Assembly (NCBI GenBank): GCA_008632985.1
Contig: QPGO01000116.1
Location: 124,001 to 188,000 of the forward strand
DNA length: 64,000 nt
Direction: 5' to 3'
Source of the DNA: Psammoneis japonica
Taxonomy: Eukaryota
Shown here: positions 10,970 through 54,360 of the stretch, in pieces
How positions within the stretch are numbered: the first letter of the stretch is position 1
How the letters are laid out: each line of letters starts with the position of its first letter
The notes under the pieces: generated by a model
Database searches by the model: none
Told to the model about the DNA's origin: nothing
What the model saw: the letters and a program-made list of their open reading frames with translations, nothing else
Position numbers and translations under genes: made by a program

Positions 10970-11104
10970 GTATGGGCTATCCTTCTCGTTTTTTATCTTT
11001 TTTTTTTATTGTGTGTTATTCGAGGTTGAGGTATCCAGCGGTCGATGGACAGGCAGTCCATCGAGCGAGAGATTTCGATGGACTTTAGATGGACTCTACA
11101 GTGG

Positions 11105-11160
11105 CTCTATCTCTACTCTAGCTAGCTAGCTAGCTAGCAGAGTAGAGACTAGCTAGAGCA
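11105..11160. repeat. (CTAG)n-rich low-complexity tract
   Basis: ctctagctagctagctagctagcagagtagagactagctag, directly at the left edge of the TpA-depleted island. Confidence 0.8.
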
Positions 11161-11179
11161 GCAGTAGACACGGTAGAAA

Positions 11180-14100: not shown

Positions 14101-17100
14101 AAATTCCATGTTGCCTCATCTGCCAGACCCTGCCAAACTTCTTCCCCTCTGAGAGCATGCAAGAGTGCTGTCAGACAAAAAGGCAAGCTTTGGCACTCAC
14201 AAAGTCAAAATCAACACATGGAATGAACACAACAACAGCCTCTGTGCAACATGCTTGAGTCAGACAACTCATCCAAACCTTGTGATCAATGTGTCACTCC
14301 TTTGCTGTGTTGTTGTGTGTGCCAAAATTTTGGAAAGAAAGGCTGCAAGGAATCAACCAATGGATTGGTCATCTTTTGTCCAGCAGTGGGAACCAGGTTT
14401 CTGTGACATGACACAAACCACCTGCACCTTTCAGAACCAGCAGCATGTGTTGCAGCATCTGTGCCAGATGTGACAGCAGCTGTGCCAGATGCAGCAGCAC
14501 TGCAACAGCCAAGGAAGGAGCTTTTGCCAGAGCAAAAGCCCTGCCATGGTTGTGGTGTGTGCCAGCTCAAGAACTGCAGCAGGAATCTGAAATGTTTGAA
14601 GATGAAGCACATTCCCACCAAAACAAAAAGTGTGCAAAGTTGGAATGACTGCCAGCTGGCGATGCTTCTTGACAGAGGAGGGAGCAATTTGAGTCAGGCC
14701 CAACTGAGCTGTGCATCAAGTGCAGCACCATGATTGATCTCTCTTCTCTTGGCAAGGGCCAAGGGAATTTCTTTGGGCAGCAAACCCCTTTTCCCACAAA
14801 CTGGAAGGTGCTCCTGCAATGCTGCCCTTGGCCCAACTGCCAACATGGCTGTGCACCACCACAACCAAACTCTCAAGGTCCTTTTCTGCAATGATGGAGG
14901 CTCATGACATGACCCAAGGCTCACCTTTTTGTGTGCCCCATCAAGCAGATGACAAGCTGGCTGGTCATCATGAGGTTTTGCTGCATGAAGCTGTTCTCAC
15001 CCTCTGGTGAAACATCAGCACAGGACATCAACATGCAACAAAAGCTGCTGATGGTGTTCTCCTGTTGTCTTCTGCGCATGGATCATCATCAAGAAGATTG
15101 ATGAAAACTGAGTGGCACATCTCAACAGCAGCTGCTTTGCATCACTTGACCATGTCCTGCTTCTTTGCACAATTGTGCAGCACTGTGCTGCTCCAGCTCA
15201 TGACAAGCAGCAATGCCCCTCAAAAGGAGAAAGTGTTTTGGTCAAGCACATGTGGAGCCATCCATGCATTCTTGTTTTGGCTCGCCACTTTGGAGGAATG
15301 GTCAGTGAGGTCAGAGGTTGCCACAGCAGGAGGAGGTTTGTCATCAGGTGCAAGTTGAAGGCCTGAGCAAATGTTTTGAAATGGTGAACACCCACGCCAG
15401 TGGGGACCAGAGGGGCTTGACTTTGCAAAGAGGAAGGAGGTGGAGCAGCTGGCTCTCTTGAGAAATTTCTGACATTTCCAAGGAGCTCCAGAGCTGCAAA
15501 AAATCTGGCAGAGGCAATGGAGTTCACAGCATCTGACACTTCATTGGAGATTCCTGGAATCAGTGGGTGGGGTTGACCTTGCACCGGCAAGGCATCCTCT
15601 GGAAGGTCACTCATCATGCTTTGAAGGGTCTGAGCAAGGTGCAAGCAAACTTGCTTGTGATGTGGTTTCTTGTGCACCAAGACATTGAAATGGGGAAAAC
15701 TGGCCCTCCTCTTTTCATGGGGATGACATCCTGAACACCGTCAATGAGTTTGAGCCAGATGCAAAGGCAGAAATTGACAGTTTTGGCACAATGCAACAGG
15801 GGAACCAAACAAGTTGTTCCGGCAAGTTTGCATTGGTGCTGAATGGCCTTGCCATGCGCTTCAGCTTCAGGATGAGAACAGCGCCAATGGAAAAGGATTG
15901 GGAGCCACCTGGATTGAGTTCTTGGCAGGAGAAGAAATCTTCTGGGGAATGAGCCTGATTGGTGATTTTGCACAGCTGTTTGGCACAAGGCACAATGGCT
16001 TGGAGTTACTTGATGACAACATCAGTGGAACAGCATTGAGGGAAATGCTCAGTGATGTGCAAGGTCTGTGGTGATGGGGCGTCTCATCCCATTCATGATG
16101 CTGTGCACAAATGGAACTGTCTTTGAGAGTCTCACTCACAAAAGAAATGTCTCAAATGTCAGAGAGGGCAAAAGAGGTGTGGAGGTGATGGACAATGACA
16201 TGTGCAGGCTTGTGATGATGAGTGCCACCAATGCAATGAATCACAAAATGTTGAGAGTGAGTTCTCAGACAGGAAAAAGCAGCAACAGCACTGACAACGA
16301 TGGGGCTGATGCAGCAAGTGGTGGTGTGTGGGTGCTGGTTGACTTCTAAGGTGCTAGAAGGCTCATGATGCAGCATCAGTGAAGAATTTTGCCACACGAA
16401 AATCCCAAGCAGCAGCTGTTTGATGTGACATTTTTCACCTTTGAACCAACACAGCCTTCACACATCTCTTGGTCAATTGGGAAAAACCTCACCAACTTGT
16501 CTTGCAGCAAAATGAATCAGGAAATTTGACCTCTTTCCAGCAGCATCAGAAGGTGACAGTGCAAAAAGCAAGGTTGGAACCAGGATTTCCCACCCCCCCA
16601 GCATCATTGTCAGTGTCAAAACAGCACTCTGAAAGCAGCACTTGTTTGCCCAGATTTCAAAGAGCTTGTTGCACAAAGGGGCAGAGCACTCTGGCTCAAA
16701 GTGCGCGACATGCTGCACAACCATGGCCCTTGCAGCGAGCGAGCCGAGAGTGGGGATGATCATGAATCCCACACGAAGAAGAAGAAGAGACTGCAGTGGT
16801 CTGACCAGGCAAATGCCATGGCTCCAGCTGCTCCCCAAGAACCACCATTCCCCTGGCAAGAATGCAATGAGAGAAGTTGGACACTGCTCAAATGATGTTT
16901 CATCACCCCATGCTCCTCCCCGCCCCGATCGCTGGCTCTCTCAACAAAACAACAAGAAGAGCTGCTCGCTCTCCCAGCTCTCACTCTCCTCCTTCAGTGC
17001 TGCTGATGCCTCAGCATCCACAGCAGCTTGCATGGCAACAATGGCTGGGATGTCAGGGATGCTGTGACAACAACCCATGCTGCGCTTGAAAACCCTTGCA

Positions 17101-17140
17101 GTGGAAGTGTCCATTGTGACTTGTGATTGTGCCGAGTTTC
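11180..17140. mobile_element. Degenerate element bounded by long (about 850 bp) diverged inverted repeats; TpA- and CpG-depleted
   Basis: About 11190-12040 is the reverse complement of about 16280-17130 (e.g. tcacaatggacacttcc / ggaagtgtccattgtga; cccctttgtgcaacaagctc / gagcttgttgcacaaagggg). No intact transposase recognised. Confidence 0.65.
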
Positions 17141-17418
17141 GATCTGGAGGAAAAATTGGTTCATGTTTTTCTTTCTTTTGTCATTTTTTTCATTTCTCCA
17201 AATTTTTCATTAGAAAAACGACGCCAATTGAAGATTTCGCGTGTGTACGGAGACTGAGGTAACATCCTACATACCTAAATCCTACACGCCTTCCTGGTAT
17301 AATTCAGCTTCACCTTTCTCTGCGCTTTTTTGCTTGCTGCTCATGGCATGGCGGCGGTGTTTTGCGGAGGTCTCTGAGCTTTACTCAGCAAGAGGGTCAA
17401 ACTCCTATCAGTCTCAAC

Positions 17419-36960: not shown

Positions 36961-37700
36961 TTACCTATCCAGAGCAGCGTCTCTTGCCAGTACTTCTGGT
37001 GAAAACTTGACTAGAAACACAGCCTTTTCCTTTCTCGGAGGCAAATTGGTGGTTGCACTCCCGCTCCCCGCCATGTTGGAGCCGGGTGCGTTCGCTGCGC
37101 TCATTTCACCCTCTTCCAAAGCGACACTGTGTGCCGTGACACGAGCTGTAAAGCCCGCTCCGTCCAACACTCCCGCAATAATCCCCGAAAGATATGCATC
37201 GACACTTAATTGTCCCAAATCAGAAGGCACCGACACGTAGATGGAGGTAATGGGTTCATAGTCAACAATCATGAATTCATCCGCATGATCAATACTCCGT
37301 TCCAACGAATCCGCAGCCTTTCCAAAGAGAGACTTCCAAACCGACGATGACACGAATTGTAAAATATTCATCAATCTCGTTTCTCGTTTGGATTCACGAG
37401 CGCGATACGCCAACAATTCAAGAACTTTGAGACCGACGCCGTATCCGGCACTCTCCAAACGCCGCTCCAGCTCCGAGATGCTCGCAACGCGACTCTGATG
37501 ATACTGAACCAACTCGGAATACAAATATGCAAAAGCACTCAACGACACGGATCCGTCAGCACTGATTGAGAGAGGAATAAAAAAGAATTAGTTGTGCTCT
37601 GCAAACGAGCTAGCTTTTTGCCACTATAAACCTGTCAAACTCACCGTGAGCCTCGTCCACCCAACGGCCGGTCGAGAATGTTTACGTTTGACCGACTCAT
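36961..37700 (-). CDS. TRAPPC5: TRAPP complex subunit 5 (Trs31)
   Basis: MSRSNVNILDRPL exon 1, intron about 37563-37645, then VSLSAFAYLYSELVQY..LERRLESAGYGVG..VWKSLFGKAADSLE..GF.ARVTAH. Confidence 0.93.
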
Positions 37701-38192
37701 TTCGCTCGTTCGCTAAAAATCTAATAAGTACAGGTGGGTGTATTAAAGTCAACTCTACAATATGATCACTTCTGCGGTGATCAAGAGTCCAACACAGAAC
37801 TACAAAGTCGAGTCTTCAACATAAACAGAGGTAAGCGTCTCTGAAATTGGCCATCTTCCATCTCCGCTCCAAATCACCAAAACAAATTCCAAAATCCGGG
37901 TGCAAAACGACCGCGCAAGAGCAAGCAAGGTTGCGCGTGTGCTCCGTCTGTATGTAGCTCCGTCCCTCCATTTCACAATGTCTTACCGGTACTCGCCTAC
38001 GAAGCCCTACACGAATTTGAAATTTTGGATTTTCGATTGCGTAAGCACACATTTCGTGGCATCGGCACGCACTGCGTTACCTGTTACCTCTACAAGACTC
38101 ACTCACTGACGTGCAAGACTGCTTGCGTTGGCATCTCGCTTTTCTGAGTTTTATACATCCGATGTGCAGTGTCAGAGTTCCTTGTTTAGGTA

Positions 38193-39482
38193 ATGCAGGC
38201 AGGATCGAACTTTGTCGAGACTAGACGTAAAGAGCATGAATACCTAGCGCTCTTCCACGCTCACAAAAATCTCATTGTTGGCGGACACGGCGTGGTGGAG
38301 AAGCCTGTAAATGCCAAAGGCGAGTGTGGCCGTAAACAACCTAGACGCAGCATGACGATAAAAGAGGCAGCAGAAATAAGCAACAAATCTCTTATGAACT
38401 TCTTCCCATCCTTTGATACGTTGGGAGACGTGAACTATTTTCAAGAACACGAACTCTCTGTCGAGGAGTGGCTCCAGTATTGCCTCTACAAGCTACCAGA
38501 AAAGAGGAGGCGCGTACCACAGCCAATCCTCGACCTTGAAAACAATAGCGATAGACAGGATGACATGCCTTCTTTCTTCTCGCCTTCCGACGCTGGTCGA
38601 GAGCTTTCTCCAGGCTATTTCCTGCATCCTGTGACTCAAGAGAACCTTGCAGATGCACAAGATCTTCTCTTGGAGATTTTTCCTGACGACGTTGCGCATT
38701 TTGAAGTTGTATTTTCGGTTCTTAAGAAGCCCTTTATTGAGTATGAGTTTGACAGCGACATTGAAAACTCTCCCACCGTTGCCAAATCTTTCTTTTGGCT
38801 GATCGTCGAGAAGGCGACTGGATCGCCTGCTGCCATTTGTTCTTTAATGTACCGTGATGAGGACTATGAAGACTCGCTTTGGGGGAGTTGGTATGGCGTT
38901 GGTCCAACCTTTCGTCGTAAAGGGTTGGGTTCTTTAGTTCTCCTCTTCTTGTTAGAAAAAAGTGTCTTGTCTCGCAAAAGAACCGCCAAGTTCTTTACTG
39001 AGGAGTTGGATTTTGAAGAGCAAGCCAACAGTTTGTACGACTACGTCGGGGCGAAAGTGTACAAACGCCAGTACTTCCCGAAAGGCAAGTGCCACCGTAT
39101 CTGGAGGCAGGCTCAAGTCGGTGGTTCGTTGAAGAATTTGTTCGTTGGGCTTCTGCTTATCAACATTCTGCGATTTCTGCATCGTTGTCGATGCTTGTTG
39201 TGGGAATTGTCTGACCTTGCTTCACTGCAACAAGACAGCAAGCGGTCCGTCATTTGCGCCCCTGCGAAGACGACGAAAGGTGACAAGCTACTGGGCTGGC
39301 TAATCGTGCTCCTTCCCCTATCTTTCGTGACGGAAAGCGTGAGGCGCTTTGCAGCGCGCTTTCCCAGCATCGTACAGCAGACGGTTGTATCCATCGTCAA
39401 CCCATTTGAACCCTCACAATCAGAAGTTGTGGAAGTTCCTCCAATCAATAGCCAAGCCAACAGCTTGGAAAAAGGTGACTGA
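38193..39482 (+). CDS. GNAT-family acetyltransferase, paralog 1
   Basis: Motif A WYGVGPTFRRKGLGSLVL, motif B ANSLY..VG; hydrophobic C-terminal segments; the true start may be downstream. Confidence 0.75.
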   Translation: MQAGSNFVETRRKEHEYLALFHAHKNLIVGGHGVVEKPVNAKGECGRKQPRRSMTIKEAAEISNKSLMNFFPSFDTLGDVNYFQEHELSVEEWLQYCLYKLPEKRRRVPQPILDLENNSDRQDDMPSFFSPSDAGRELSPGYFLHPVTQENLADAQDLLLEIFPDDVAHFEVVFSVLKKPFIEYEFDSDIENSPTVAKSFFWLIVEKATGSPAAICSLMYRDEDYEDSLWGSWYGVGPTFRRKGLGSLVLLFLLEKSVLSRKRTAKFFTEELDFEEQANSLYDYVGAKVYKRQYFPKGKCHRIWRQAQVGGSLKNLFVGLLLINILRFLHRCRCLLWELSDLASLQQDSKRSVICAPAKTTKGDKLLGWLIVLLPLSFVTESVRRFAARFPSIVQQTVVSIVNPFEPSQSEVVEVPPINSQANSLEKGD

Positions 39483-41050
39483 ACGGTCAGTGCACTTCTA
39501 ATGTCTCCCTGTGCTTGTGGCTAGATCCTGTTTGGGATCAGCATTGCGATAGAGTGCAACATTTTTGTCAGCCTTTCTTGTTGTACGGTGCAACATAAAT
39601 CTCACGGTGTTTCACGAAAAAGTGCCAAGTTGCACACACACAGACAAACGTAATTATTTTTAATCATTATTTTGTTTATAAACATGTCGTCGCTAGCCTA
39701 CTGCAACAGTCTGTATCTCTTTTCTTCAGCAACCAAGCCACGCCCAACGCATTCTTCGTCTAGAGAGGCACTTCCAACAGAAATGGACCCACACCTCACC
39801 AACTGCACCACTGCTGTTTACGACAACCACCATTGCCAGTCCCCATCCACACTCGGGACTTGTTTGACCATTTGTGTGGGGAAGACGGCACAGAATTCAC
39901 AGAAAAAAGTGCTGGGTTGTGTGCTTTTTGTCGCCTTAAAAGTGGAGGTGGGTTTGCAAATGGACTGCCACCACAGTCAGCAAGCTCCACCACACACGTT
40001 GCTCATGCTGAATCTGTTCTTTGCTTGTGCAGGAAAATGCCATCAAGAGAAATGAGACACTCACCCAAGTTTTGCCATGCAATGCAGGGATGAAAATTCA
40101 GTTTGGTCAAGAGGTGCTGTTGGGAAGTGCAAAGCTCTTTCTGTTGTTCAAAAGAAAGCAAGATGTGGCAAGTTGGCCAACTGACAAGAAGTTTTTGACT
40201 CTGAAGAGGATTCGAAGGTGAAAGAAATGTGCACAACCCCCAGGTCTGAGTTTCACCCACTCTCTCTTCCAAGGTCATGTCTGATGTGAATCACACTGGC
40301 AATCTCCAGTGTCAATCACACAAAGAAACATTGAAAGAGAGCTGGTGCATGTTCTTTTCGGCATGTTTGTGCTGGGCATCCTTGACAATGAACTTGAGCA
40401 TTTGCAATGAAAAAACCTTTGTTCAAAAGAAGAGCTGACCATTGATTCTGAGTGAGAGCTCAATCAAGTGCCAGCGACATAAAAATGAAAGTTGATCCAA
40501 GGCTGGCAATGGCACCCAACTGCAGAATGGGCTAAACAAGCTCAGAGCATCTGCTTTCAGCAGTGCAGCAGTTGACCATCTAGGTGCATTGTTTTCAGCT
40601 TTGGTGCTCACATGAAAAATAAAAAAAATGCACACACTCACTGCTCACTTGCTTTCCTGTTGACACACCCAAACTCCATCACTTTTCTGTGGCCTGTTCT
40701 ACATTTCATTCATTGCCATCCAGACACTCAAGGCTTGAGGATCTGATGGCCCAAATGAACAAATGTTCTTGTCAAAGAACTCTTGTCATGCAGAGTGTTG
40801 GCCTGGAAGAAAGGCCACTTCAAGCCCTCACAGCCATGGACATCCATGCCAGCAGAATGACAAGCAAAACGAAAATGTCAGTGGAGCAATGCAAACAACA
40901 AAGAACTGCTGATGACAACCATCACAGCATGTCAACCAGGGCACCTTTCAGATGTGATTCTGAGTCATCCTGCCAAATTTCACAGCCCCAGGCACCGCCA
41001 GTGGTTTGTGACATCTGCGCATCCAAGAGGAGGTGAGGAGCCAAGCAAAA

Positions 41051-41054
<4 letters not shown>

Positions 41055-41090
<36 letters not shown>
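41055..41090. repeat. (CT)n microsatellite
   Basis: Run of about 17-18 CT units. Confidence 0.95.
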
Positions 41091-41095
<5 letters not shown>

Positions 41096-41835
41096 TACCC
41101 AGTGCAAAGCCTGGTCTTGTGGTTGTGCACTGCTGAGATCTCCTGCAACTGTGTGGGCATCATTGTGTTTTGGAAAGTGAACACAACATGGCTGAAGAAT
41201 GGGAAGAGGGGGTCAGCCAACAAAGACCAGGTGCCTGTGCACAAGATCTGGGAGACACAGAAAAAAGGCTCACAGGCCATGCAAGTTTTGTCAAAACAAG
41301 TCCAGTTGTCAATCGATCACAACGCGCTCACAGATGTGTCTTCTTTGGAGCATTGCAAGTCATTCTAACAAATGTCATTGCCACAAGTGCTCCCAATGCT
41401 CCATGGCATTGTTTCATCACAAAGGCGTGTGCCACCCAACAGGAATTGTGACACCCTAAAAACTCATGCCATGTTTGCATCATCAAAGAAAAGACCCCAA
41501 TCCATGCCGAGGTTTGGATGACACAAGTGACAATGATGCAATGTGCAGCTGCAAGTGAAAAACATCAAGAGAATGATGATTTCACAATGTGCACCCAGAG
41601 CAGAGATTGTTGCCTCCAATGTCAGCTGTCGCAGAGCAATGCTGCAGCCTGCGTGCAATGTGGCAAATTTCAATTCTCTCCAAAGCTTGAAAAAAGCCAA
41701 GCAATCTTTTTCAAAGTTGGCAATCTTGACAAAGAGCATGGATGGTTTCATGGGTGACTTTGAGCCACTGGAGCTGTTTCAGCTTTTTCAAATGAAAATC
41801 AAGCTCTCGGCTGGCCTCAAGAACCTTGTCACCCC

Positions 41836-42212
41836 TTTGGATTCATGAGTGCAATGCACCACCAACGGTTCAAGACCCTTTAGACCGATGCCGCACCCGA
41901 CACTCTCCAGCTCCAAGATGCTTGCAATGTGACTCTGATGTAGCTGGTCATGCTGAGCCACTCAATGACACAGATCCATCAGCACTGATTGGAAAGAGAA
42001 CAAGAGAATTGGTGCTTTGCAAATGAGCTGGCTTTGCACCACAAACCTGCTGTCAAACTCACCCCGTGGGCCTCGTCCACCCAACCGTCGGTCGAGAGAA
42101 TGTTTGCATTTGACAGACTCATCATTTCTCTCATTTGCTGAAAATCTAACAAGCACAGGTGGTTGCAGCCAAGTCAAACTTGTCAAGATGATGTGATCGC
42201 TTCTGTGGTGAA
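41836..42212 (-). pseudogene. Decayed copy of the TRAPPC5 5' region (exon 1, intron, start of exon 2, promoter)
   Basis: Aligns to about 37387-37780 (e.g. cctcgtccacccaac, tgtcaaactcacc, cagcactgattg) with deletions and YpR transitions. Confidence 0.9.
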
Positions 42213-42816
42213 CCACACACTGAATTTGAAAATTTTTGATTTTTCGCCGTTTCGGCCAGTTTCTGATCTTTTAGCACCTTTTTCACAATGTGCTTGTCAC
42301 GAAATGCTCTGATTGTTGATTGCTGATTGCACTTCCTTCGATTCTTCTAACAGAGACAGTGTGTGGAGGAATGGCGTCAAGATGAGATGGGATTGTGCAG
42401 CACTGAATGTCTTGGTGCATCCTGCTTCTAGGATGCGGTGCACACGCAGCAAGTTTGCTTGATGCGGCCGCCCTCTGCGTGGCCCATGCGCCTCTTCTGC
42501 GGCTCAACAGGGCCCTCTGGCAGAGCAGCCAGAGTGCTCTCTCTGCTCTAGCTGGAGCTGGCCCCAGCTAGAGAGCTGGCTGGCTGGGACAAGATGATGG
42601 AAGGAGCAACGCGACATTTTGTTGCACATGTCAGCTGCACCATCACGCTCCACATTTGAAGCTTTTGGGCATTGTTCTGCATTGAACGAATGCATCATCA
42701 TCCGCCAAGCTTTTGTTTGTGTGCGCTCGACAACAAATTCGCGAGATCAGTCCAAGAAATGCGGCATTGACATTCATGACGAGATTGCTTAGAAAGTGTG
42801 CACTGCTCACATTCCG

Positions 42817-43288
42817 AGTCGTGGTTCGTCTGTCCACTGACCCAGATTCTCTGTTGTGTCTGTGCTTCCGTCAGTCGGAATTCTCGTTGAAATTCTTTTC
42901 GCGCTACGTCGACTTGATTCTCAAGCCGAATGCTTTGGGAATCACAGGCGGTGCTTTGGAGATCACAGGCTTTGCACAGATGTTGGGCCAACCACAGATT
43001 GGTTCAGCAGCATTTGGATGATTGTTGTGAATGTGGTTGACCCTGAAGTTTGCACCAGTCTCTAGTGCAAACCTGCAGATCAACCTCTGTTTGGGTGCAT
43101 TCAGCAGATTCAGTCTAGGTGGCTCACAATTTGGTCGCCAGCACTTTTGTGAAAGACTGAACACTCGTCACCACTCGTCAGCAGATTCCATCTGCTTGCA
43201 TTCTGCCTGAGGTGTCAATCTGGAGTGGACATCCAGTCGATGCGTCAGGAAGGCACTCGGAGCTTGCGCGGACACGCGAGCTTCGACT
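42817..43288 (+). repeat. 5' LTR
   Basis: AGTCG..CGACT, colinear without indels with the 3' LTR. Confidence 0.95.
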
Positions 43289-43672
43289 GGCCAGTTCGCC
43301 CAATTGGGGCAACTCAACACGTTCTGCGCTTCTGGTTGGGGATGCCCAAACCAGAGCAACCCTGTCAACAGCTCTGATGCCATCAGTGCTCCTCATTGGC
43401 TGTGCTCCGTGCTCTTGACATCAAGCACTGCGACTGACTCCGTCAGCTGAGTGGCTGGTTCCGCCAGAAGGTTCATTGTTGATTTTGCACGTGCACCATC
43501 TCAGGCCCCACTCCACCCCGCGGCCCTCCTGAGACCCAAGAGAGTTCTCCAAGCTTGCACTCTTTGATTGAGAACATCCCAGACGATTGGTCCGACTCGA
43601 CAGCTTCAAGCGTGCTGTCGGACATGGCTGACGACCCCGAAGTGTTCGAGGATCAGCCTCCTGAGGATCAAC

Positions 43673-44121
43673 TGCAATGTGCAGCTACCAACAAGAGTCA
43701 ATGCATCACGGCGACGTGTTGCAGCCTTTAAATGTCACAAAGGGCGTGACGAAAATAACCTTTTGTCTGCATGCATGCTGCGTTGTGAATTCACAGCGGA
43801 GTGGTTCATCTCGCAACCATTGGGCAGGAGGCCAGGGGTTCGAAACCCTGAGTGGGAGTTGTCTGCAGCAACGTTGATCACTGTCGAACGCGCAAAACTC
43901 TGTGCAGTTCTGCATGTTCCTTCGCACGCACCCACACTGTTCCGCCAAAACCGTGCAGTGTCAGCACACGTCAGCAAAGAGCCGCATGGATGCATGATGC
44001 ATGGGGAGGAGTGCAATGCACAGCTGCCAATGAGAGTCAATGTGTCACGGCGACGTGTTGCAGCCTTTAAATGTCACAAAGGGCATGACAAAAATGACCT
44101 TTTGTCTGCATGCACACTGCA
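43673..44121 (+). mobile_element. TRIM (miniature non-autonomous LTR element) nested in the Copia gag
   Basis: 110-bp direct terminal repeats 43673-43782 and 44012-44121, TG..CA ends, PPT ggggaggag before the second repeat, 4-bp TSD CAAC. Removing it restores the gag frame EDQ-PPQGDN. Confidence 0.88.
43794..43850 (+). promoter_or_regulatory. tRNA-type Pol III internal promoter (A box and B box) inside the TRIM
   Basis: cagcggagtgg (TRGCNNAGYGG if TA to CA is reverted) at 43794-43804 and GTTCGAAAC at 43838-43846 in a caggg..ccctg stem; 33-nt spacing as in tRNA genes. Confidence 0.6.
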
Positions 44122-47100
44122 CAACCTCCACAGGGGGACAATCCACCACCTCAGGACCCCAACAACCCAGACGACAAGCCTGTTCCACCCTTGGAACTTC
44201 GCCTGGACGATTCGGATGACGACTCGGACGATGATGATGATGAGCCCGCTGCAGGCTCTGGCATGTCGGAAGACGAGCGTCGCACCATTCAGGCCATGGC
44301 TGCCATGGCAGCCGCGGCGATGCCGAAGATGAAAGTCTGCAAACCCAAGGCTCCTAAGATGGGGGGGGGTTGTCTCCATTGGCTCCACTGAAAAAGTTGC
44401 TTGGACCGGTGGGAAACCCAAGGCTGGCTGGTCCAGATTGGAAACTCCCAACTCCAGTCCAACGTCACCAAATCAGTGTCGCTCCCACCACGTTTCTTCC
44501 GCCCAGAAAAGCAAGGCCCACTGAGTTGCCGGACTTTCAACCAAGTTTGACAAGAAGGGAGATCTTGCAACCTTTGAGAAGAATGTGATGAAGCATCTCA
44601 AGGGCTGCGGTTTGGATGCGGTGACTTGCCTGCAGGACCCCAAGGACTCAACTTCCGTGATGTCTTGTGTTGAAGGACATCCTCGGCACTCCAAATCGAG
44701 CGTCGCCCGTCTTGTCGCACCTCAACTCGCCAAGCATGACTCCTGCGATTCATCCAATGACAGGGACACTGCTGAGTTTCTCAAGAACTCCTTGGAGGCT
44801 AGCCTGGCCATGCAGCTGGATCTGGAGACGGAAGAGTCGGATTGCTTTCCGAAAGTCTGGACAGCTCTCGTCGTGATCCTTCAGAGCACATCCATCGAAC
44901 GCTTCAAGCAGCTCGAAAAGCAGCTAGAGGAACTCAAGCCCTCCCAGTTCGCCGGTCAGGATCTCTCCCAGCTCCTGTCCAAGTTCAAGACTGCGGCCCA
45001 AGAGTTGGATGTTGCGGGTCAGTGCAACCACAAGCTGACGCTTGCCTTGGTCAACGCTTGCCTGGAAGCTGGCGGGGATGGCAAAAACGGTCAGCAGTTC
45101 AAGCACGCCCTTCGCACTGTGAAAGAGAATTTGAGCAAAGCACTTGTTGAGACAGCGCACAAGTCTAAGACAGACGCGAAACGACACCTTGCGTCCAAGA
45201 ACCTTGCCCACTCTCAAGTCATTGGAAAGATCCTGGACCGCTGCCGCTTGTTCAAGAACAACACGCAGTGGGATCCTGTCAAGCATGCGACAGACTCCAA
45301 AGCCGCTCCCAGAGCCTTTGGAAACCTGGCACTTGATCCCTCAGCCACTTGTCAAACGGTTGGAGTTCCACTCACTCAGGCCCAGTTCAATGCTCTCTTC
45401 CAGCAGACGGCTGCTCCCCGCAAGAAGACTCCGGAAAACTCTCCATGCAACAACTGCGGCAAGCTCGGACACTGGGCACGTGACTGTCCCAACAAGTCTG
45501 GTGAGGGCACTGGAAACAACCAAGGCGGCTCAAACCCTGGGCAAAATGGTGGAGGACAAGGAGGAAGGGGCAAGACCCGCTCCGGTGGCAACGGAGTCAA
45601 GGTGGTGACGGAGGCAATGGCAACGGTGGCGCCGTGCGCAACTGGAAGAAGGTCGCGCCTCGTCCCAGACAACCTGAGTCCAAGGTTGCTCAGGGCAAGA
45701 CTTGGCACTGGTGTGCCAAGTGCCGTCGTTGGTCCACCACTCACGGTGCTGCTGAGCATGGGCAGAAGGATGAGTCACCTCCTGCGCCGACTCAGCAGGC
45801 CAACACCCTCTTCCTGGATCCTGGAGCGTGGCACGCGGAATTCGACTTTGAGTTGGGATTCAAGGACGCACCACTTGGACTGTTTCAGGTTGTGCTCACC
45901 TTGATCCACCCTTTTGCATCTCTGCTGCTCTGTGCCACCTTGGGACATTGGTGTTCTCAGCTTCCGGCCAACTGGTGGATTGCTGGAGTCAACGCCATGA
46001 TCTGGTTCGTGACGGTCGTTGCGTCGCATGTCTCATCACATTGGCGCCTCTGTCCTTTGCCCGCAATCTGGTTCCTTCTGCTTCCAGTGGCGGCATTCTT
46101 GCCGTCTAAGTTTGAGCGTGATGCTCGTGCCGAAGCCCCACGTGCTCCTCCTCCACCCCCTCCTCCCCGCTGGGCCACACACCAAGGAACCAAGTTCTCC
46201 AAGCGCCGCGAACGTTGGGGGTGTCGTCGCCTGCGGGAGCTTCAGCCTCGCTGCGGACGCCGCCGTGCTCCACCCAGGCATCCCTCTCTGTCCAACGTGC
46301 CCGTGGGGCGCCTGGTGTCAAGCAGCGGCAGCGCAATCAGTTGTGTGACCTCAGTGAAGAGGTCAAGGCCTTCGAGCGGTCACTCACCTTCATGCACGCA
46401 CGTCCTCTCCTCGGTCGAGAGGGAGAAGCCGGTCGTCCCAAGGGCACCAGACGTTGTAAGAGCACTGCTCTAAAAAGGGGTCCTGATGTTCGTCATCAAG
46501 GTCGTCGGAACCTCAGTGCACCCATGTGTCGCCCTGTTGGTTCAAATGCTGCACACGGTTTGACGCGCTCCCAGCTTGATGCCATCTGCTCCCCAGCAGC
46601 CAAGGCTTGTCTTGCCAATGCTGACGTCCCGTAACCTCTACTTTCTGTTGCTGGCGCTCTCAAGGTGGCGTTCACGAGTCCCAAGGAGACAAAGGAAGTG
46701 GTCAAAGAGCACACCTTCCCGGTCATTTGGGACTCAGGAGCAAGCGTGTCGGTCTCACCTTGCAAGGACGACTTCGTCGGGCCTCTCGAGAAACCACCTG
46801 TCGCCATCCGGCTCCAAGGTGTCGCAAAGGGCCTCCATGTGGCAGGTGTTGGACACGTTGCTTGGTCTTTTGTTGATGTCATTGGGGTGCTTCGGACCCT
46901 GAAGGTTCCGGCCCACTGCATCCCCAAGTCCAAGGCTCGTCTCTTGAGCATGACCAGTCTCTTGCAGACGCACTTGGATGAGTCCATCGAACTGCTGTCG
47001 GACCGCACCATCCTCAGTGGATCCAAGAATCGTGAACAAGGACACAGGCGAGGTGTTGAAGTGTTGATTGAACCTTCAACTAACCTGCCGGTTGGATGGG

Positions 47101-49231
47101 CCTGCGCGAATCAAGCAAGTCAACAAATTTGTGAGGAGTTTCATTTGACGTTGTCGACGATTGTGGAGCACAATCACAATGTCTCACCTGCTGAAAAGGA
47201 GCTGCTACGTTGGCACTTTCGTCTCAGGCATCTGAGCTTTCGAAAGGTGCAATTTTTGATGCGTGCGGGAGTTCTGTCCCACTCCGAGGGCACCCATCAT
47301 TTGCATGAACGCACTTGTCGCATCGATCGTCCGCCCCTTTGTGCCGCATGCCAACATGGAAAACAAAAACACCGTCCCAGCCCCGGAAAGACTTCTCGTG
47401 TCGTCAAGGATCGAGCTGGAGCCTTGAAGAAGGACCAACTGTTCCCCAGTCAATGAGTTTTGGTTGATCACTTTGTTTGTTCCACTCGTGGTCGTCTGAA
47501 ACACACTTTTGGAAAGGAGAGCATAAAACATCAGCATTTGGGCAGAGCAATCTTTGTGGATCATGCATCCGGTTGTGTCAACGTTCAACATCAAACTCAC
47601 CTTAATGCCCATGAAACTTTGACGGCCAAGAACGCGTTTGAGGCCCATTGTCGTGATTGTGGCGTTGTTCCCCAAGAATGTCTGAGCGACAACGGAAAGG
47701 CGTTCACGTCGGCCAATTTCAGGGTTCACTTGGAATCTTTTGCTCAAGTTTCAAAGTGTGCCGGTGTGGGAGCTCACCATCACAATGGGGTTTGTGAACG
47801 AGCAACACACACTGCGATGTCGATCGCGAGAAGTGTGATGTTGCATGCGGCGATCCATTGGCCTGATGTTGCGGATGCCACTCTTTGGCCTTTGGCTGCA
47901 GACCACACTGTTGTGCTTCACAATGTGATGCCAGACCCATCTGCGGGTCTAAGTCCACAGGACATGTTCACCCAGATGCGCAACCCTCACTCTCGGTTCC
48001 AGGATTGTCGTGTTTGGGGGTGCCCTGTTCATGTTCTTGACAAAGCCCTCGCCGATGGAAAGAAACTGCCAAAGTGGAAACCCCGCGCGAGTTGGCATGT
48101 CTGTGTGGGACTCAGCCCCGAGCATGCCTCGTCAGTCCCGCCAGTCTTGAGTCTTGAAACGGGAGCCATCACTCCACAATTCCATGTCGTTTTTGATGAT
48201 TGGTTTGCGACGGTTCCTGCCAATGCCAGCTCGTTGCCTCCCATTGGGTCTCTGGAATGGACGTCTCTTTTCGGAGACAGTGCATGTCAACATGCTGTGG
48301 ATGATGAAGAGCAGGCTGATGTCGACATCCATCAAGAACACCCAGAATGTGAGCGCCGATCCGAGGAAATCCGCGAAACCGTCACCTGCCGTTCGCCTCC
48401 CAAACCCTCACAGGTCCCTCCTCTGGCTGCTCAGGCACCAGTGTCTTCTCCCAAGGCCCCCTCGAGTCCTGTTGTGGAAACCCCGGTCCCTGAGGTGGAG
48501 TCCATGCCTCCACCAGAGTCTCCTGCTGAACCTGTGGCTTCAGACTCGCCTCAGAGGGAGAGAGCACCCGCTGCCAACTCAAATGCCCCACCAAGTCCTC
48601 AGAGGGAGCCTCCCACCCCTCGCAGTCTTTCTTCGGATCTCGGTCAAGAGAGGGAGTCACCACCTGTGGCTCCACCCAGCACACAACGCCCCTCTCCAAC
48701 CCCAGTTCGTCGCTCAACCCGGACTCGCGCTGCGCCCCAGCGGTTTGGATGTGATGGATCTCAGGGACACGGATGCTTGTCTCACTTCGTTGATTTCCAT
48801 CATGCACACAAGTTTGACCACGGTTGCAACATGTCCATGACTGCTCCCACCGTGTGCAAGGCGTCGGTGCGTGAAATCAAGGATCCGGGTGCGCCATCGT
48901 GGGACGAGGCCATGCGCTCTTCCGATCGCGACAAGTGGTTGAAAGCAGCTGAGATCGAGATTGCAGCACTTGTCCATCAAGGAATGTGGGTCGAGGTGCC
49001 TGCATCCGATGCTCGAACCAAGATCCTTCCCGGCACTTGGGCATTTCGTCGCAAGCGATCACCTTCAGGCGAGATCAAGAAGTGCAAGGCTCGCTGCTGT
49101 TGTCGCGGCGATCTGCAGGAAGGAAGTCTGTTTGATGCTTGTGCACCGGTTGCAGCCTGGAGTGCAGCTCAAGCATTTTTGGCATTGAGTCTCATTCTTT
49201 GGATGGCATGCGGCATCCGCCGATTTCCAGT

Positions 49232-49834
49232 CCGCATTTGTTCAAGCAGTGCTTCCTGTGGAAGAACCAGTTTGGATTCATCTTCCATGAGGTTTCAGCT
49301 CAATGAAAGGACCCAAGACTTGTCTCAAGCTCGTCAAGAGTCTCCTGGACTCTCTTCGGCTCCAAAGTTGTGGTGTGAACATTGTCTGCAAGCCTTCTTG
49401 GACTTGGGTTTCATCCAAAGCGAGTACGACCAATGTCTCCTGCTTCGCCATGATTGCATGGTCTGCCTGAATGTCGATGATTGCGGGATCAGTGCAGCGC
49501 AGGAGCCCACCATTGATCAGCTGATGTTTCAGCCGCATTCGTTCAAGCAGTGCTTCCTGCGGAAGAACCAGTTTGGATTCATCTTCCATGAGGTTTCAGC
49601 TCAATGAAAGGACCCAAGACTTGTCTCAAGCTCATCAAGAGTCTCTGTGGACTCTCTTCAGCTCCAAAGTTGTGGTGCGAACATTGTCCACAAGCCTTCT
49701 TGGACTTGGGTTTCATCCAAAGCGAGCACGACCAGTGTCTCCTGCTCCGACATGATTGCATGGTCTGCCTGCATGTCGACGATTGTGGGATCAGTGCAGC
49801 GCAGGAGTCTACCATCGATCAGTTGATGTCTCAG
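49232..49834 (+). repeat. About 301-bp tandem duplication within RT
   Basis: ccgcatt(t/c)gttcaagcagtgcttcctg.. begins at 49232 and again at 49533; both copies encode SSAPKLWCEH..VDD. Confidence 0.92.
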
Positions 49835-50905
49835 CTGCACGAGAAAGGATTTGAATTGACGAAGGAGGGCAGTTTTGCCAAGTTCTTGGGCATCAAGTTC
49901 GAAAGGAGAGACGACGGCACCATCAAGTTGACGCAGAAAGGGTTGACTGACAAGATCCTGTCAGCTGCCGGCTTGATTGATGGCAAACCAAACTCACTCC
50001 CTGCGGCGTCCCAAGCCCTCGGCACCGATGCGGATGGAGATCCCATGCAGGAGGACTGGAGCTGTCCCTCCGTTGTTGGAATGCTCCTGTGCTTGTCCAC
50101 CAATGCCCGTCCTGACATTTCCCTTGCCGTCAGTCAGGTTGCACGCTTCAACTCCAACCCGAAACAGCCGCGTGCAACGCCGTCAAGACTCTGGTCCGCT
50201 GCTTGAAAAGGACGCATGATCAGGGGATGCTGCCATCTCCAACCGGTCGTTTGGATCTTGATTTGTGGGTTGATGCCAATTTGCTGGTCTCTGTCGCTGC
50301 GAAGCAGATTCTGATCCGAGTTCTGTGAGGTCACGCACCGGATGCATCACAACTCTCAGTGGATGTCCTTTGGTGTGGAAATCGCAGCTCCAGTCAGCCA
50401 TTTCCTGCTCCACCCTCGAAGCCGAGTGTCAAGCCGCCTCCTGTGCTCTTCGGACTCTCCTGCCTTTGAAGAACCTGCTCCTTGAGATCGTCTTTACCTT
50501 GGACATCTCCCAAGATCTCAGGACTTCGGTTCGTCCGCGTGTGTTCGAAGACAATCAAGGCGCTCACTGCCTGGCTGCCAACCACCGCATCACCAATCAT
50601 GCCAAGTGTTTTCTCGTCAAGTGGCATTGGCTCTGGTTGCATTGTGATGAGTTCAACACGATTGAGGTGGAATCGGCCGAGCAACTCGCCGATTGTCTTG
50701 CCAAGCCTTTGACTCGAGAGCTCTTTGAGAACAACCAGTTGAAGGTCCAAGGGTGGCGGCACTTTGGAAGCATCGCTTCCTTTGTTTGTCATGTGTTGTG
50801 GCTTGGTCAAGATGTGGGAGCTTTGCTCTGAACTTGTGCCAATTGTGTGAGCTTTCTCGTTTGCGATTTTCTTGTTGGTTGCTGGAATCTGTGAATGAGA
50901 GGGAG

Positions 50906-51377
50906 AGTCGTGGTTCATCTGTCCACCGACCCAGATTCTCTGTTGTGTCTGTGCTTCCGTCAGTCGGAATTCTCATTGAAGTTCTTTTTGCACCACGTCG
51001 ACTTGATTCTCAAGCCAAATGCTTTGGGAATCACAGGCGGTGCTTTGGAGATCACAGGCTTTGCACAGATGTTGGACCAACCACAGATTGGTTCAGCAGC
51101 ATTTGGATGATTGTTGTGAATGTGGTCAACCCTGAAGTTTGTGCCAGTCTCTGGTGCAAACCTGCGGATCAACCTCTGTTTGGGTGCATTCAGCAGATTC
51201 AGTCTAGGCAGCTTGTGGTTTGGTCACTGGCACTTTTGTGAAAGACCAAATGCTCGTTGCCACTCGTCAGTAGATTCCATCTACTTGCATTCTGCCTGAG
51301 GCATCGATCTGGAGTGGACATCCAGTCGATGCGTCAGGAAGGCACTCGGAGCTTGCGCGGACACGCGAGCTTCGACT
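50906..51377 (+). repeat. 3' LTR
   Basis: Preceded by the PPT and followed by TSD TTCCG. Confidence 0.95.
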
Positions 51378-51454
51378 TTCCGCAGAGAAATCAAGTCACA
51401 TCATCCCACTGCACAACTTCATGTTGTAACATGAACTGACAATGACATTGTTGT

Positions 51455-52555
51455 TCATTGTTGGATGTTGACATTCCAAATGAGTCCGAGCTTTTCCAAA
51501 GGCACCAAGAAAAACCAACATGCAGTGTTGCACTCACTGCGTTTGGCCAACCTTGCATGATTGTGATGGTCCAGGTGTTCACCCTCGGTGATGAAATGGG
51601 AAAAAGGGGTGCACAAAAGATCAAAGACAAGAAAAGGCAGACAGCAACCAGATGCACTGGCCTTGAAGTTTGACGCCATGCATTTGTTCTCGGTGTGAAT
51701 TGGTTTCTCGTCGAGGGGTGGCGGATGGTTGTGGCAACGTTAAACCAGAGAGTCATGGTCTGGCAGAGCCAAGAAGAAGCAAAGGCCACAAACAGCGTAG
51801 TGTGCCAAAATGAACTCCATGCTTGGCACTGTCCATGCCCATGCATCCAGAATTCTGATTGCCGGCGTGTCAATTTTTCGCGGTGCAAACTCTTCGTCGA
51901 CATCCTCATGAACATCAAGATCAAAGAAAGAGAAAGCCAACTCAACCCCGTAGAGCAGCGGTGCATGTGGATCGCCGGGGACGTCGCAAAACTTGTGATG
52001 ACGCCGATGCTGTGATGACCACCACAGGGGGCCGCCCTGATTCGAAATTGCCCCCAGTGACAGCATGCATGTGGACGTGATCGGTCCACACTGAAAGGCG
52101 CCGTGAGCAGCGTAGCGGTACAGACACACTGACATGAAAATGTTAATCTTTGTGAGTGCAAGAGCAAGTGATAGTGCTGCAAGCTTGGTTGGAGCATCAA
52201 ATGTCCACAGTAGAATCAACGAGCTGAAGTAGATGGGAACGATGGCAATACAGTATTGCGTTTTCATCCCTTGGAGAGCCGAAAGAAGAATCGACAACAG
52301 ACATACGGTACAAAACGTCTTGATCTCGTAAGTTTCCAGTTCCTTTACCAAGACAAAGATGGCACCAACAAGCGTGGCTACAACCCCCACCGAGAAAAAG
52401 ATGTTGGTTCCACCACGATTGTACCACTTTCTAGCGACAGCATCATCGTTGGTGGACTGTCTCATGACATTGTTTGCGGTAGTATTCATTATTGATGTTG
52501 ATGCCCTTGCGAGTGTAGGCGTTCTGTGTTGTGCGTGGAGGGTGGGCGTGAGCAT
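51455..52555 (-). pseudogene. Membrane fatty-acid (delta-9-like) desaturase, probably disrupted
   Basis: QGGPLWWSSQHRRHHKFCD..DPH (His box 2) and GEHLDHH (box 3). His box 1 reads CLYRYAAH instead of HRYxxH, there are two frameshifts, and the 3' part shows apparent Y to C changes. Confidence 0.75.
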
Positions 52556-52663
52556 GGAGAATTAAGAAAGGAGTTGCCACGATTGTAAGCACGATATTCC
52601 GTGGCACTGGGTCACAAGATTATAGGCGTTGGCGTGAGGCTTATGTGAGGTTTAACCGTCCTG

Positions 52664-53974
52664 ATGTTCAGTGTCGCAGTCGCAGTTACTTATTTAGTGC
52701 AGGCGGGATTAAAATTTGTCGAGAATAGACTTCGAGCGGGATTATTGCGATGGAGCGCTCGTCCACGCTCACAAACATCCTCGTTGTGGGCGAACACGGC
52801 GTGGAGGAGAAAGCCAGTACATGTCAAAGGTGTGTTTGGTGATAAACAAGCAAGGCGCAGCATGACGATATCACAGGCAGCAGAATTAAGCGACAAATCT
52901 CTTATGGATTTCTTCCCATCCTTTGATACGTTGGGAGACGTGAACTATTTTCAAGAACACGAACTCTCTGTCGAGGATTGGCTCCGATATTGCCTCTACG
53001 AGCTACCAGAAAAGAGGAAGTGCCTACTTGAGAACAATGGCGATAGACAGGATGGCATGCCTTCTTTCTTCTCACCTTCTGACGTCGGTCGGGAGCTTTC
53101 TCCAGGCTATGTCCTGCATCCTGTGACTCAAGAGAACCTTGCAGATGCACAAGATCTTCTCTTGGAGATTTTTCCTGACGATGTTGCGCATTTTGAAATT
53201 GTTTTTTCGGTTCTTAACAAGCCCTTTATCGAGTACGAGTTTGACAGCGACATTGAAAACTCTCCCACCGTTGCCAAATCTTTCTTTTGGCTGGTCGTCG
53301 AGAAGGCGACTGGATCGCCTGCTGCCATTTGTTCCTTAATGTACCGTGATGAGGACTATGAAGACTCGCTCTGGGGGAGTTGGTATGGCGTTGGTCCTAC
53401 CTTTCGTCGTAAGGGGTTGGGTTCTTTGGTTCTCCTCTTCTTGTTAGAGAAAAGTGTCTTGTTTCGCAAAAGAACCGCCAAGTTCTTTACTGAGGAGTTG
53501 GATTTTGAAGAGCAAGCCAACAGTTTGTACGACTACGTCGGGGCGAAAGTGTACAAACGCCAGTACTTCCCGAAAGGCAAGTGCCACCGTATCTGGAGGC
53601 AGGCTCAAGTCGGTGATTCGTTGAAGATTTTGTTCGTTGGGCTTCTGCTTATCAACATTTTGCGATTTCTACATCGTTGTCGATGCTTGTTGTGGGAATT
53701 GTCTAAACTTGCTTCACTGCAACAAGACAGCAAGCAACCCGTCACGAGCACGCTTGCGAAGACGACGAAAGCTGATAGGCTACTGGGCTGGCTAATCGTG
53801 CTCCTTCCCTTATCCTTCGTGAAGGAAAACGTGAGTCGCTTTGCAGCCCGACTTCCCGGCATCGTGCAGCAGACGGTCGTATCCATGATCAACCCATTCG
53901 AATCCTCGCAGTCAGAAGTTGTGGAAGTCGCTCCAATGAAAAGCCGCGCCAACCGTTTGGAAAAAGATGACTGA
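52664..53974 (+). CDS. GNAT-family acetyltransferase, paralog 2
   Basis: Core nearly identical to 38193-39482. Confidence 0.75.
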   Translation: MFSVAVAVTYLVQAGLKFVENRLRAGLLRWSARPRSQTSSLWANTAWRRKPVHVKGVFGDKQARRSMTISQAAELSDKSLMDFFPSFDTLGDVNYFQEHELSVEDWLRYCLYELPEKRKCLLENNGDRQDGMPSFFSPSDVGRELSPGYVLHPVTQENLADAQDLLLEIFPDDVAHFEIVFSVLNKPFIEYEFDSDIENSPTVAKSFFWLVVEKATGSPAAICSLMYRDEDYEDSLWGSWYGVGPTFRRKGLGSLVLLFLLEKSVLFRKRTAKFFTEELDFEEQANSLYDYVGAKVYKRQYFPKGKCHRIWRQAQVGDSLKILFVGLLLINILRFLHRCRCLLWELSKLASLQQDSKQPVTSTLAKTTKADRLLGWLIVLLPLSFVKENVSRFAARLPGIVQQTVVSMINPFESSQSEVVEVAPMKSRANRLEKDD

Positions 53975-54360
53975 CCAGGAGTACGGTTCTTATGTCTTCC
54001 TCCTGTGCTTGCGGCGAGCCATCCGCTTCGAAATAGATGGCTGATTTTTTGGTGTGTCAGAACATTTCTGATATCACTGTGCCCTCAGACCTGGTCTTGT
54101 TCGTGTATTATCATAATCATATGTGCGGCTTTATCTTTGGGATCCGCATCGCGCCTAAATACGAAGTTAGTAGCTCGTATTTTATAAAAAGAAATTTTCT
54201 TGTGTCATGGAGTTGTACGACTAGCTAGAGCATACTCGTTCAACGCTGTTGTGCGGTGAATGAGTATGTTCATCCTCCGCAAAGCTTGCGGGCGTCTTGC
54301 AGCGTTATACCGGTACGTGTTTGCCCTACCGGTAGGACGATTACTGAACTCCGACTTTTG

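Follow-up and report, generated by a model that had tools for sequence, protein, structure and literature searches.

The window analysed here, a 64,000-nt stretch of Psammoneis japonica DNA (GCA_008632985.1, QPGO01000116.1 positions 124,001 to 188,000; all coordinates below are window positions), carries a dead Ty1/copia LTR retrotransposon of 8.56 kb on the + strand. Its two direct 472-bp LTRs (42817-43288 and 50906-51377) are enclosed by a perfectly matching TTCCG target-site duplication (TSD; 42812-42816 and 51378-51382), within the 4-6 bp of the group, and its domains stand in the copia order of zinc knuckle, GAG-pre-integrase, integrase and RVT_2 (PF00098, PF13976 and PF07727 matched in order), with the integrase upstream of an RVT_2-type reverse transcriptase (RT). 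The TG...CA LTR termini that are usual for Ty1/copia, though not strictly defining, are absent. The 5' LTR is followed by a conserved stretch starting TGG (43288-43310), a putative primer-binding site by position that is similar in the 11 copies compared and has no tRNA match. Downstream lie a gag-like frame with a zinc knuckle and 0 Tyr in 459 aa (44525-45904; PF00098, E=7e-8), a segment combining a GAG-pre-integrase domain (46635-47456; PF13976, E=9e-9) with a DSG that we take to be the protease motif, a frame with the integrase and RT start that holds 1 Tyr in 716 aa (47457-49607; RVT_2, E=3e-4; 574 longer homologs, the best at 66-67% identity), and the frameshift-broken remainder of RT and the C-terminal pol segment, which could be aligned to homologs (49592-50831; RVT_2, E=3e-15). 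A polypurine-tract-like stretch (50891-50905), identical in 11 copies, precedes the 3' LTR. A 301-bp tandem duplication within RT (49215-49839), with halves ~92% alike (20 transitions, 4 transversions and 3 gap columns), is private to the window copy. The named homologs, at 55-59%, belong to the diatoms Cylindrotheca, Fragilaria and Mayamaea, which points to a diatom host.

The LTRs begin and end with AGTCG...CGACT (42817-42821 and 43284-43288), a 5-bp inverted repeat inside 5-bp TSDs, and these AG...CT boundaries hold in nine elements apart from junction bases altered at TA steps. Other non-canonical LTR termini are known in plants (PMC5659011); our literature search returned no report of this end motif. 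A search of the genome returned 44 LTR matches, 18 of them full-length at an identity of at least 89%. Our comparisons use 18 full-length LTRs and the internal regions of nine copies, with the diverged C18 pair (L019/L020) and L021-L030 excluded from the LTR table and the partial copies C116 and C137 from the internal table. Nested at 43673-44121 (+) is a non-autonomous, TRIM-like mini LTR element of 449 bp with TG...CA ends, LTRs of ~110 bp (43673-43782 and 44012-44121) and a 4-bp TSD, CAAC; sister copies whose alignment spans the position lack it, and it belongs to a high-copy family (322 genome candidates; 45 matches among 40 scored).

The surrounding host DNA preserves an old local duplication, in which the TRAPP-gene region and the next gene (37387-39524) have second copies at 41836-42211 and 52626-54018. 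The first of these, a decayed copy of 37387-37780, lies inside a TA- and CG-poor block to the left of the element (39800-42816; 19 TA and 54 CG in 3,017 bp), and the second lies outside it with a normal mutational spectrum. To the right, a host flank on the - strand with a single match in the genome (51378-52110) overlaps the 3' portion of a fatty-acid desaturase gene and holds 4 TA in ~730 bp. A 6-kb block at 11175-17210, with sharp edges and inverted ends of ~700 bp, adjoins a (TAGC)n run (~11100-11170) and has 8 TA and 39 CG left; it is probably an older target. A BRCA2-like gene (4058-8959, +) encodes a 1,633-aa frame with a 300-bp internal repeat at 5717-6642.

The LTR pair and the source of its differences

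The two LTRs align over 472 bp without a gap and differ at 36 positions, with 36 transitions, 0 transversions and 0 indels. The differences comprise 10 doubles in which TG in one LTR faces CA in the other (20 differences), 9 steps with CG against TG or CA, 4 with TA against TG or CA, and 3 outside YpR steps; these counts, taken from a computed alignment, are exactly those of a preliminary description of this DNA. YpR steps contain 33 of the 36 differences while making up 48% of positions (P=4e-8), the 10 doubles compare with 2.3 expected and were reached in 0 of 20,000 simulations, and the 36:0 ratio of transitions to transversions departs from the 80:64 counted between two host paralogs of the window, 38125-39524 and 52626-54018 (Fisher P=2e-8). 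One public DNA run has contigs across 42400-42868, where one letter differs (42610, outside the LTR), and across 51348-52300, where none differ; they verify the outer LTR ends only, the repeat interior being collapsed, and the run may be the assembly's own sample.

CpG decay might be thought to account for the whole pattern, with every double derived from CG and TA arising through CG>TG>TA. Such decay is present, in 7 of the 36 LTR differences, and the left block and the block at 11.2-17.2 kb are CG-depleted as well as TA-depleted. The other copies of the family contradict it as the sole cause. At 7 of the 10 double sites, 1-6 of the 16 remaining LTRs keep TA and none has CG, whereas true CpG sites retain CG in 10-16 of 16; the three double sites without direct resolution show TG and CA only (two sites) or a single CG (one site). 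Neither a normal share of transversions nor a CpG origin of all the doubles, which the preliminary description had named as results contrary to its reading, was seen: transversions number zero, and when the doubles are split by the other copies CG is a common state at 0 of 10. In the internal regions, 445 columns carry both TG and CA, accompanied by TA in 61, by CG in 204, by both in 1 and by neither in 179. A beta-binomial split of these columns into TA and CG origins placed its CG parameters at the boundary and was replaced by a tally of residues in homologs. Where a codon starts at a TG/CA column that lacks both TA and CG, the residue in homologs is Tyr in 1,347 cases and Arg in 11, and at CG-bearing codon-start columns it is Arg in 1,614 cases and Tyr in 11; because homologs carry Tyr, not Arg, at columns of the first kind, these are best read as TA-derived.

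We scored as conserved those pol columns at which 80% or more of the aligned homologs have Tyr. There are nine, every one of which occurs as TG in some of the nine copies and as CA in others, and 75 of their 80 codons now encode Cys or His. The five gag/pol frames of the window copy contain 1 Tyr in ~1,840 residues, against a mean of 2.5% in 120 homologs. TA is depleted ~10-fold rather than enriched, with 27 steps per 8,561 bp in the element and 876 per 22,401 bp in host DNA (O/E 0.06 vs 0.57), and the CG count of the element is just mildly lowered. Comparison of the copies with one another and with their homologs shows that the LTR doubles derive from TA, not from CG. CpG decay as the only cause is refuted by the conserved-Tyr codons, the Tyr/Arg tally and the insertion junctions described below, is at odds with the near-exclusive occurrence of TA and CG in the TG/CA columns, and is left with very little probability. 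In terms of direction, the 36 LTR differences resolve into 28 A:T>G:C changes, 7 CpG decays and 1 ambiguous case (42905), the 28 consisting of 20 from the doubles (three of which are assigned by inference), 3 TA singles, 2 CG gains and 3 non-YpR changes. The two gains, at 42885 and 43136, belong to the 9 sites with CG against TG or CA, and since CG occurs there in 0 of the other 16 LTRs they are probably gains of CG and not CpG decay.

Direction, timing and extent of TA loss

An LTR has A as its first base and T as its last, so an element that lands beside a host T or A forms with it a TA step that was present in neither partner, and such junction-born steps prove direction and timing from within the elements themselves, with no ancestral sequence required. 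In the nine elements with both TSDs (C18, C116 and C137, which have no TSD pair, do not enter this test), 6 of 7 junction-born TA steps have been converted to TG or CA (C188, C14, C9, C271, C11 and C171, with the caveat that the TSD copies of C171 are themselves altered at TA steps), and one, in C390, has kept TA, whereas 0 of 11 non-TA junctions are altered (Fisher P=4e-4). The process thus works on chromosomal DNA after integration, and its direction is from TA to TG or CA. The decayed host duplicate at 41836-42211 agrees with this direction: of the 16 TA steps of its intact counterpart 9 are now TG or CA and 1 is still TA, and 17 of 26 CG steps are also TG or CA. The earlier proposal that palindromic steps were resolved independently on opposite strands after insertion is borne out. 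Editing of RNA or cDNA before integration, in the manner of ADAR or APOBEC, has a general precedent in the editing of retroelements. Both it and an assembly artefact are contradicted by the equal treatment of the two strands, by altered junction bases, TSDs and host flank, by LTRs that differ within one element, by an LTR pair free of indels and transversions, and by public contigs that agree at the outer LTR ends. Altered junctions and host flank refute both, and we regard either as scarcely conceivable.

The conversion is near saturation, while CpG loss is partial. In pooled site-by-copy cells, TA is retained in 10% of 2,644 TA-type cells (~90% converted) and CG in 71% of 3,942 CG-type cells (~29% of polymorphic CG decayed, a slight overstatement of CpG loss in that 50 invariant CG columns fall outside the count), and the window copy retains TA at 13 of 252 TA-type sites and CG at 299 of 412 CG-type sites (113 of 412, or 27%, lost). 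Off target, private A>G changes outside TA amount to 0.35-0.7% (AA 0.70%, CA 0.48%, GA 0.35%), private C>T changes to 0.24-0.46% and each transversion type to 0.05-0.09%. Hits per A are ~1.15 at TA and 0.007 at AA, an excess of more than 150-fold that is a lower bound computed from accumulated change; hits per step are 2.3 for TA and ~0.3 for CpG, which makes TA conversion at least 7-fold faster. The two TRIM LTRs of the window differ at 12 of 109 sites (11%), all by transitions, and LTR pairs across the TRIM family, with 2,982 sites in all, have 196 transitions in YpR steps, 20 elsewhere and 4 transversions. Among the 30 TRIM copies fetched (L067-L096, of which two pairs look duplicated), surroundings are TA-poor in 29, and within the family most TA is gone with most CG sites intact in 26-30 of 30 copies, which indicates that the TA process runs first, without waiting for CpG decay.

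These rates bear directly on a possible origin in error-prone repair, whereby T:G mismatches left by 5mC decay would recruit a polymerase-eta-like enzyme that places G opposite T at TA. CpG decay does occur in the same DNA, AA is the leading non-TA context for A>G change, as the WA rule of Pol eta has it, and background transitions are raised. Pol eta bias, however, is a few-fold, which is hard to match with the excess of TA over AA; the TRIM family, with most TA lost and most CG kept, offers too few CpG events for seeding, and TA and CG hits within 300 bp of each other showed no concordance of strand. Repair of this kind appears to us rather unlikely as the source.

Both strands are affected about equally and one site at a time, with 1,063 TG against 925 CA among the internal products. 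Processive same-strand editing is rejected, as the same-strand share of neighbouring TA sites is 0.50-0.52 at any distance, equal to that of permutations. Strand agreement between TA and CG hits reached 0.510 vs 0.500 (z=4.5) at 301-1,000 bp, in one of 18 bins and without explanation. Fitted strand-level rates by the base after TA are 2.6 for T, 2.1 for C, 1.1 for G and 0.9 for A, so that a following C or T roughly doubles the conversion rate relative to a following A or G, and the 5' base has a weaker effect; TA survives best in CTAA/TTAG (30%) and CTAG (22%) and almost never in ATAT and ATAC/GTAT. Hits that are distributive, strand-symmetric and domain-limited, like the adjacent CpG decay, would also be expected if the A or T within TA steps of silenced DNA bore a base mark, some methylation or oxidation, that promotes spontaneous mispairing or deamination as 5mC does at CpG, with no dedicated editor at work. 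The genome has 27 matches to C5-methyltransferase domains, and our family searches found no specialised deaminase (see below), both of which favour such a mark. We know of no TA-specific base mark, and the pace of TA conversion relative to CpG decay counts against this explanation, which we judge unlikely.

The process is confined to domains that cover mobile DNA and reach into the flanks of some copies, with TA depletion running 400-800 bp past some LTRs and not at all past others. The LTRs vary in how much TA they retain (chi-square P=3e-7), and strong differences can occur even within one element, as in C98, whose LTRs keep 4 and 14 of 26 TA. The 3' LTR of C98 (L006) and an LTR of C116 (L015), with 14 and 12 of 26 TA kept, are the most TA-retaining of the set, adjoin TA-normal host DNA and have the two TA-richest flanks, a coincidence that suggests weaker editing at domain edges; over all LTRs the correlation between TA retention and flank TA is not significant (Spearman 0.23, P=0.36). 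Beside the window element, the desaturase gene (~51461-52519, -), as read from alignment to proteins P0121-P0124, is TA-depleted in its 3' part, which also has Tyr replaced by Cys and a frameshift near 51760-51790, and has normal TA in its 5' part. Damage to this adjoining single-copy gene is a cost to the host. Pairing of repeated copies, probably in a sexual cycle, could in principle trigger such a process, as in fungal RIP but with the opposite chemistry. Repeats are indeed the targets here, RIP leaks into flanks, and it inflates LTR dates (see below). The TA sites, however, lack same-strand runs, and two weaker arguments point the same way, namely the strong difference between the C98 LTRs and the hit on a single-copy gene end across ~700 bp. 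In Bigelowiella natans, moreover, a single-copy viral insert is mutated in clonal lines (Mettrop et al., bioRxiv 10.64898/2026.01.13.699255), and we consider a pairing trigger quite improbable.

The LTR clock and a proposed DNA adenine editor

Saturation of TA conversion has direct consequences for dating. Across eight LTR pairs (3,763 sites) we counted 247 YpR transitions, 26 other transitions and 8 transversions, and the mean distance within elements (7.5%) is indistinguishable from that between elements (8.4%, 112 pairs; P=0.10). Since a palindromic TA ends as TG or CA with about even odds, ~26 LTR sites give ~20 differences once saturated: any two LTRs are expected to differ by 19.4 at 26 TA sites and by 7.0 at 22 CG sites, and the window pair shows 21 and 7. 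LTR divergence is thereby held near a plateau and no longer tracks age. At non-target sites, the window copy carries 17 private changes in 3,199 (0.53%, 95% CI 0.31-0.85%), or ~1.1% pairwise, while transversions give a pairwise divergence of 0.21% (CI 0.09-0.42%), which becomes ~0.5% when scaled by the transversion share of host paralogs (64/144) that are old and coding. Set against a raw LTR divergence of 7.6% (8.3% K2P), these values support an overstatement of age of ~7-17-fold, in keeping with the early warning that LTR dating would greatly overestimate it. The nested TRIM element, necessarily younger than its copia host, nevertheless has LTRs 12/109 apart, with the wide interval of a short LTR. 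At a rate borrowed from Phaeodactylum tricornutum (4.77e-10 per site per generation; PMC6604790), the naive LTR age of 8.7e7 generations falls to ~5e6-1.1e7. The description of the element as young therefore stands relative to the naive LTR date and fails in absolute terms: with 27% of CG lost, a nested insertion, a 301-bp duplication and ~0.5% private non-target change, the element is not brand new, and its age is roughly 5-11 million generations at the borrowed rate. We hold the mutational pattern and the failure of the clock to be close to certain. LTR-identity dating and repeat landscapes are unreliable wherever the TA process runs, and because diatom LTR ages are now derived from identity and a constant P. 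tricornutum rate (bioRxiv 10.1101/2025.10.24.684338), 'ancient' diatom LTR peaks need a second look after masking of TA and CG sites.

With regard to mechanism, we lean, without strong conviction, toward the view that the TA-to-TG/CA changes are made by a host enzyme that deaminates adenine in DNA and is directed to silenced chromatin. The two LTRs would have been mutated independently after insertion, with a slower CpG decay superimposed; A would be deaminated to inosine and copied as G, the editor may be a TadA/ADAT-type enzyme, targeting could proceed through a silencing mark such as CG methylation or a histone mark, and the CpG loss would be 5mC deamination, a separate and slower process. 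The loss of essential Tyr codons in every copy examined points to a role in defence. Profile searches (PF00383, PF14437 and PF02137) recovered ordinary-looking genes that, by their motifs, are presumably dCMP deaminase-, TadA-, ADAT2-, guanine-deaminase- and RibD-like, together with two A_deamin genes, and yielded no expanded or visibly fused candidate among the ORFs read, those within ~1.5 kb, a set to which L101/L103 make no separate contribution. Contig C26 of the genome (G000) bears an ADAT2-like gene and C38 a TadA-like gene, both of them candidates only. The A_deamin (ADAT1/ADAR) domain occurs in two separate genes, L100 (G000 C40) and L102 (G000 C79); one such gene, ADAT1, is expected, and the second is a candidate worth classifying. 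Two identical dCMP-deaminase-like loci (G000 C41:505477-506590 and C317:55748-56795) may be a recent duplication or two haplotypes that the assembly left uncollapsed. The preference for a pyrimidine after TA resembles the UAC substrate of TadA, but is just ~2-fold, which counts against this mechanism. Non-target transitions and transversions stand at 14:3 in the window copy against 44:64 in host paralogs, with an excess of both A>G and C>T, and this raised background of both kinds is not explained by a pure adenine editor.

Beyond this genome, the best 80 related metagenome loci have a TA O/E of 0.33-0.81 in 77 cases and of 0.00-0.12 in three (L179, L182 and L181), which are copia relatives on metagenome contigs at 41-43% aa identity to the query. 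L179 has 0 TA in 1,356 bp, and L181 is TA- and CG-poor yet has Tyr at 10 of 15 conserved columns, as might be expected of an element surviving under TA-erasing pressure, although this is a lead only; the DNA of L179 and L181 had no match in the genome, an empty result that is not proof of absence. A broader reading, which we find plausible but somewhat short of probable, is that a dedicated DNA adenine editor, guided by chromatin, operates in diatoms and would quickly rewrite every TA of newly silenced mobile DNA and so kill Tyr codons without making stops, that this is the same defence as in Bigelowiella, either ancient in SAR or convergent, and that some copia lineages have evolved TA-poor genomes with TA kept mainly at essential Tyr (L181). 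The enzyme, if found, would be a natural DNA adenine editor.

Relation to known systems

The element shares with diatom Ty1/copia elements (CoDi) the gag-protease-integrase-RT order, the RVT_2 domain and a 5-bp TSD, and differs from them in ending with AG...CT rather than TG...CA. Like fungal RIP, the TA process makes dinucleotide-targeted transitions in repeats, kills elements and inflates LTR dates. RIP makes TpA, however, and leaves its mutations in strand-coordinated clusters, whereas here the polarity is opposite, with TpA lost and 28 of 36 LTR differences A:T>G:C, and strand-coordinated runs are absent (same-strand share 0.50-0.52). The RIP change is C>T (Mettrop et al., bioRxiv 10.64898/2026.01.13.699255), and RIP may cause insertion times to be overestimated (PMC4522978). 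Diatom transposons carry DNMT5-dependent CG methylation (PMC9998398), which would explain the CG>TG/CA part of the pattern and offer a targeting mark, but does not give A:T>G:C at TA.

The closest parallel is Bigelowiella natans, in which integrated NCLDV and virophage DNA undergoes TpA>TpG/CpA change at ~1000-fold background, measured directly; the changes are A:T>G:C solely at TpA, fall on both strands, are confined to foreign DNA and are active in some clonal lines, and the same authors report TpA-poor transposase and RT genes in B. natans and suggest that the enzyme is of ADAT2 type (Mettrop et al., bioRxiv 10.64898/2026.01.13.699255). Our data agree in the target, with 90% of TA cells changed A:T>G:C against 0.35-0.7% A>G elsewhere, in the TG and CA products on both strands (1,063 vs 925), and in confinement to mobile DNA (O/E 0.06 vs 0.57 in the host) with limited spread into flanks. 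They differ in that the host is likely a diatom (a stramenopile) and not a rhizarian, that the targets are LTR retroelements instead of viral inserts, that conversion is near saturation whereas the B. natans NCLDV region still has a Rho TpA of 0.45, and that TA loss here is accompanied by CpG decay, favours a pyrimidine on the 3' side and extends into a host gene. The timing here is shown by LTRs, TSDs and junction bases, and the rate is deduced from accumulated change where in B. natans it was measured. The main text of that preprint mentions neither LTRs nor CpG nor diatoms, and we found no report of TpA hypermutation in diatoms in the literature searched, which misses most subscription papers. 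By analogy, the pattern described here works like the TpA hypermutation of B. natans, with shared ADAT2-like machinery as a candidate explanation. A natural, dinucleotide-specific A-to-G process on genomic DNA, reported once before in a preprint on an unrelated alga, is thus encountered here in another lineage and on LTR retrotransposons.
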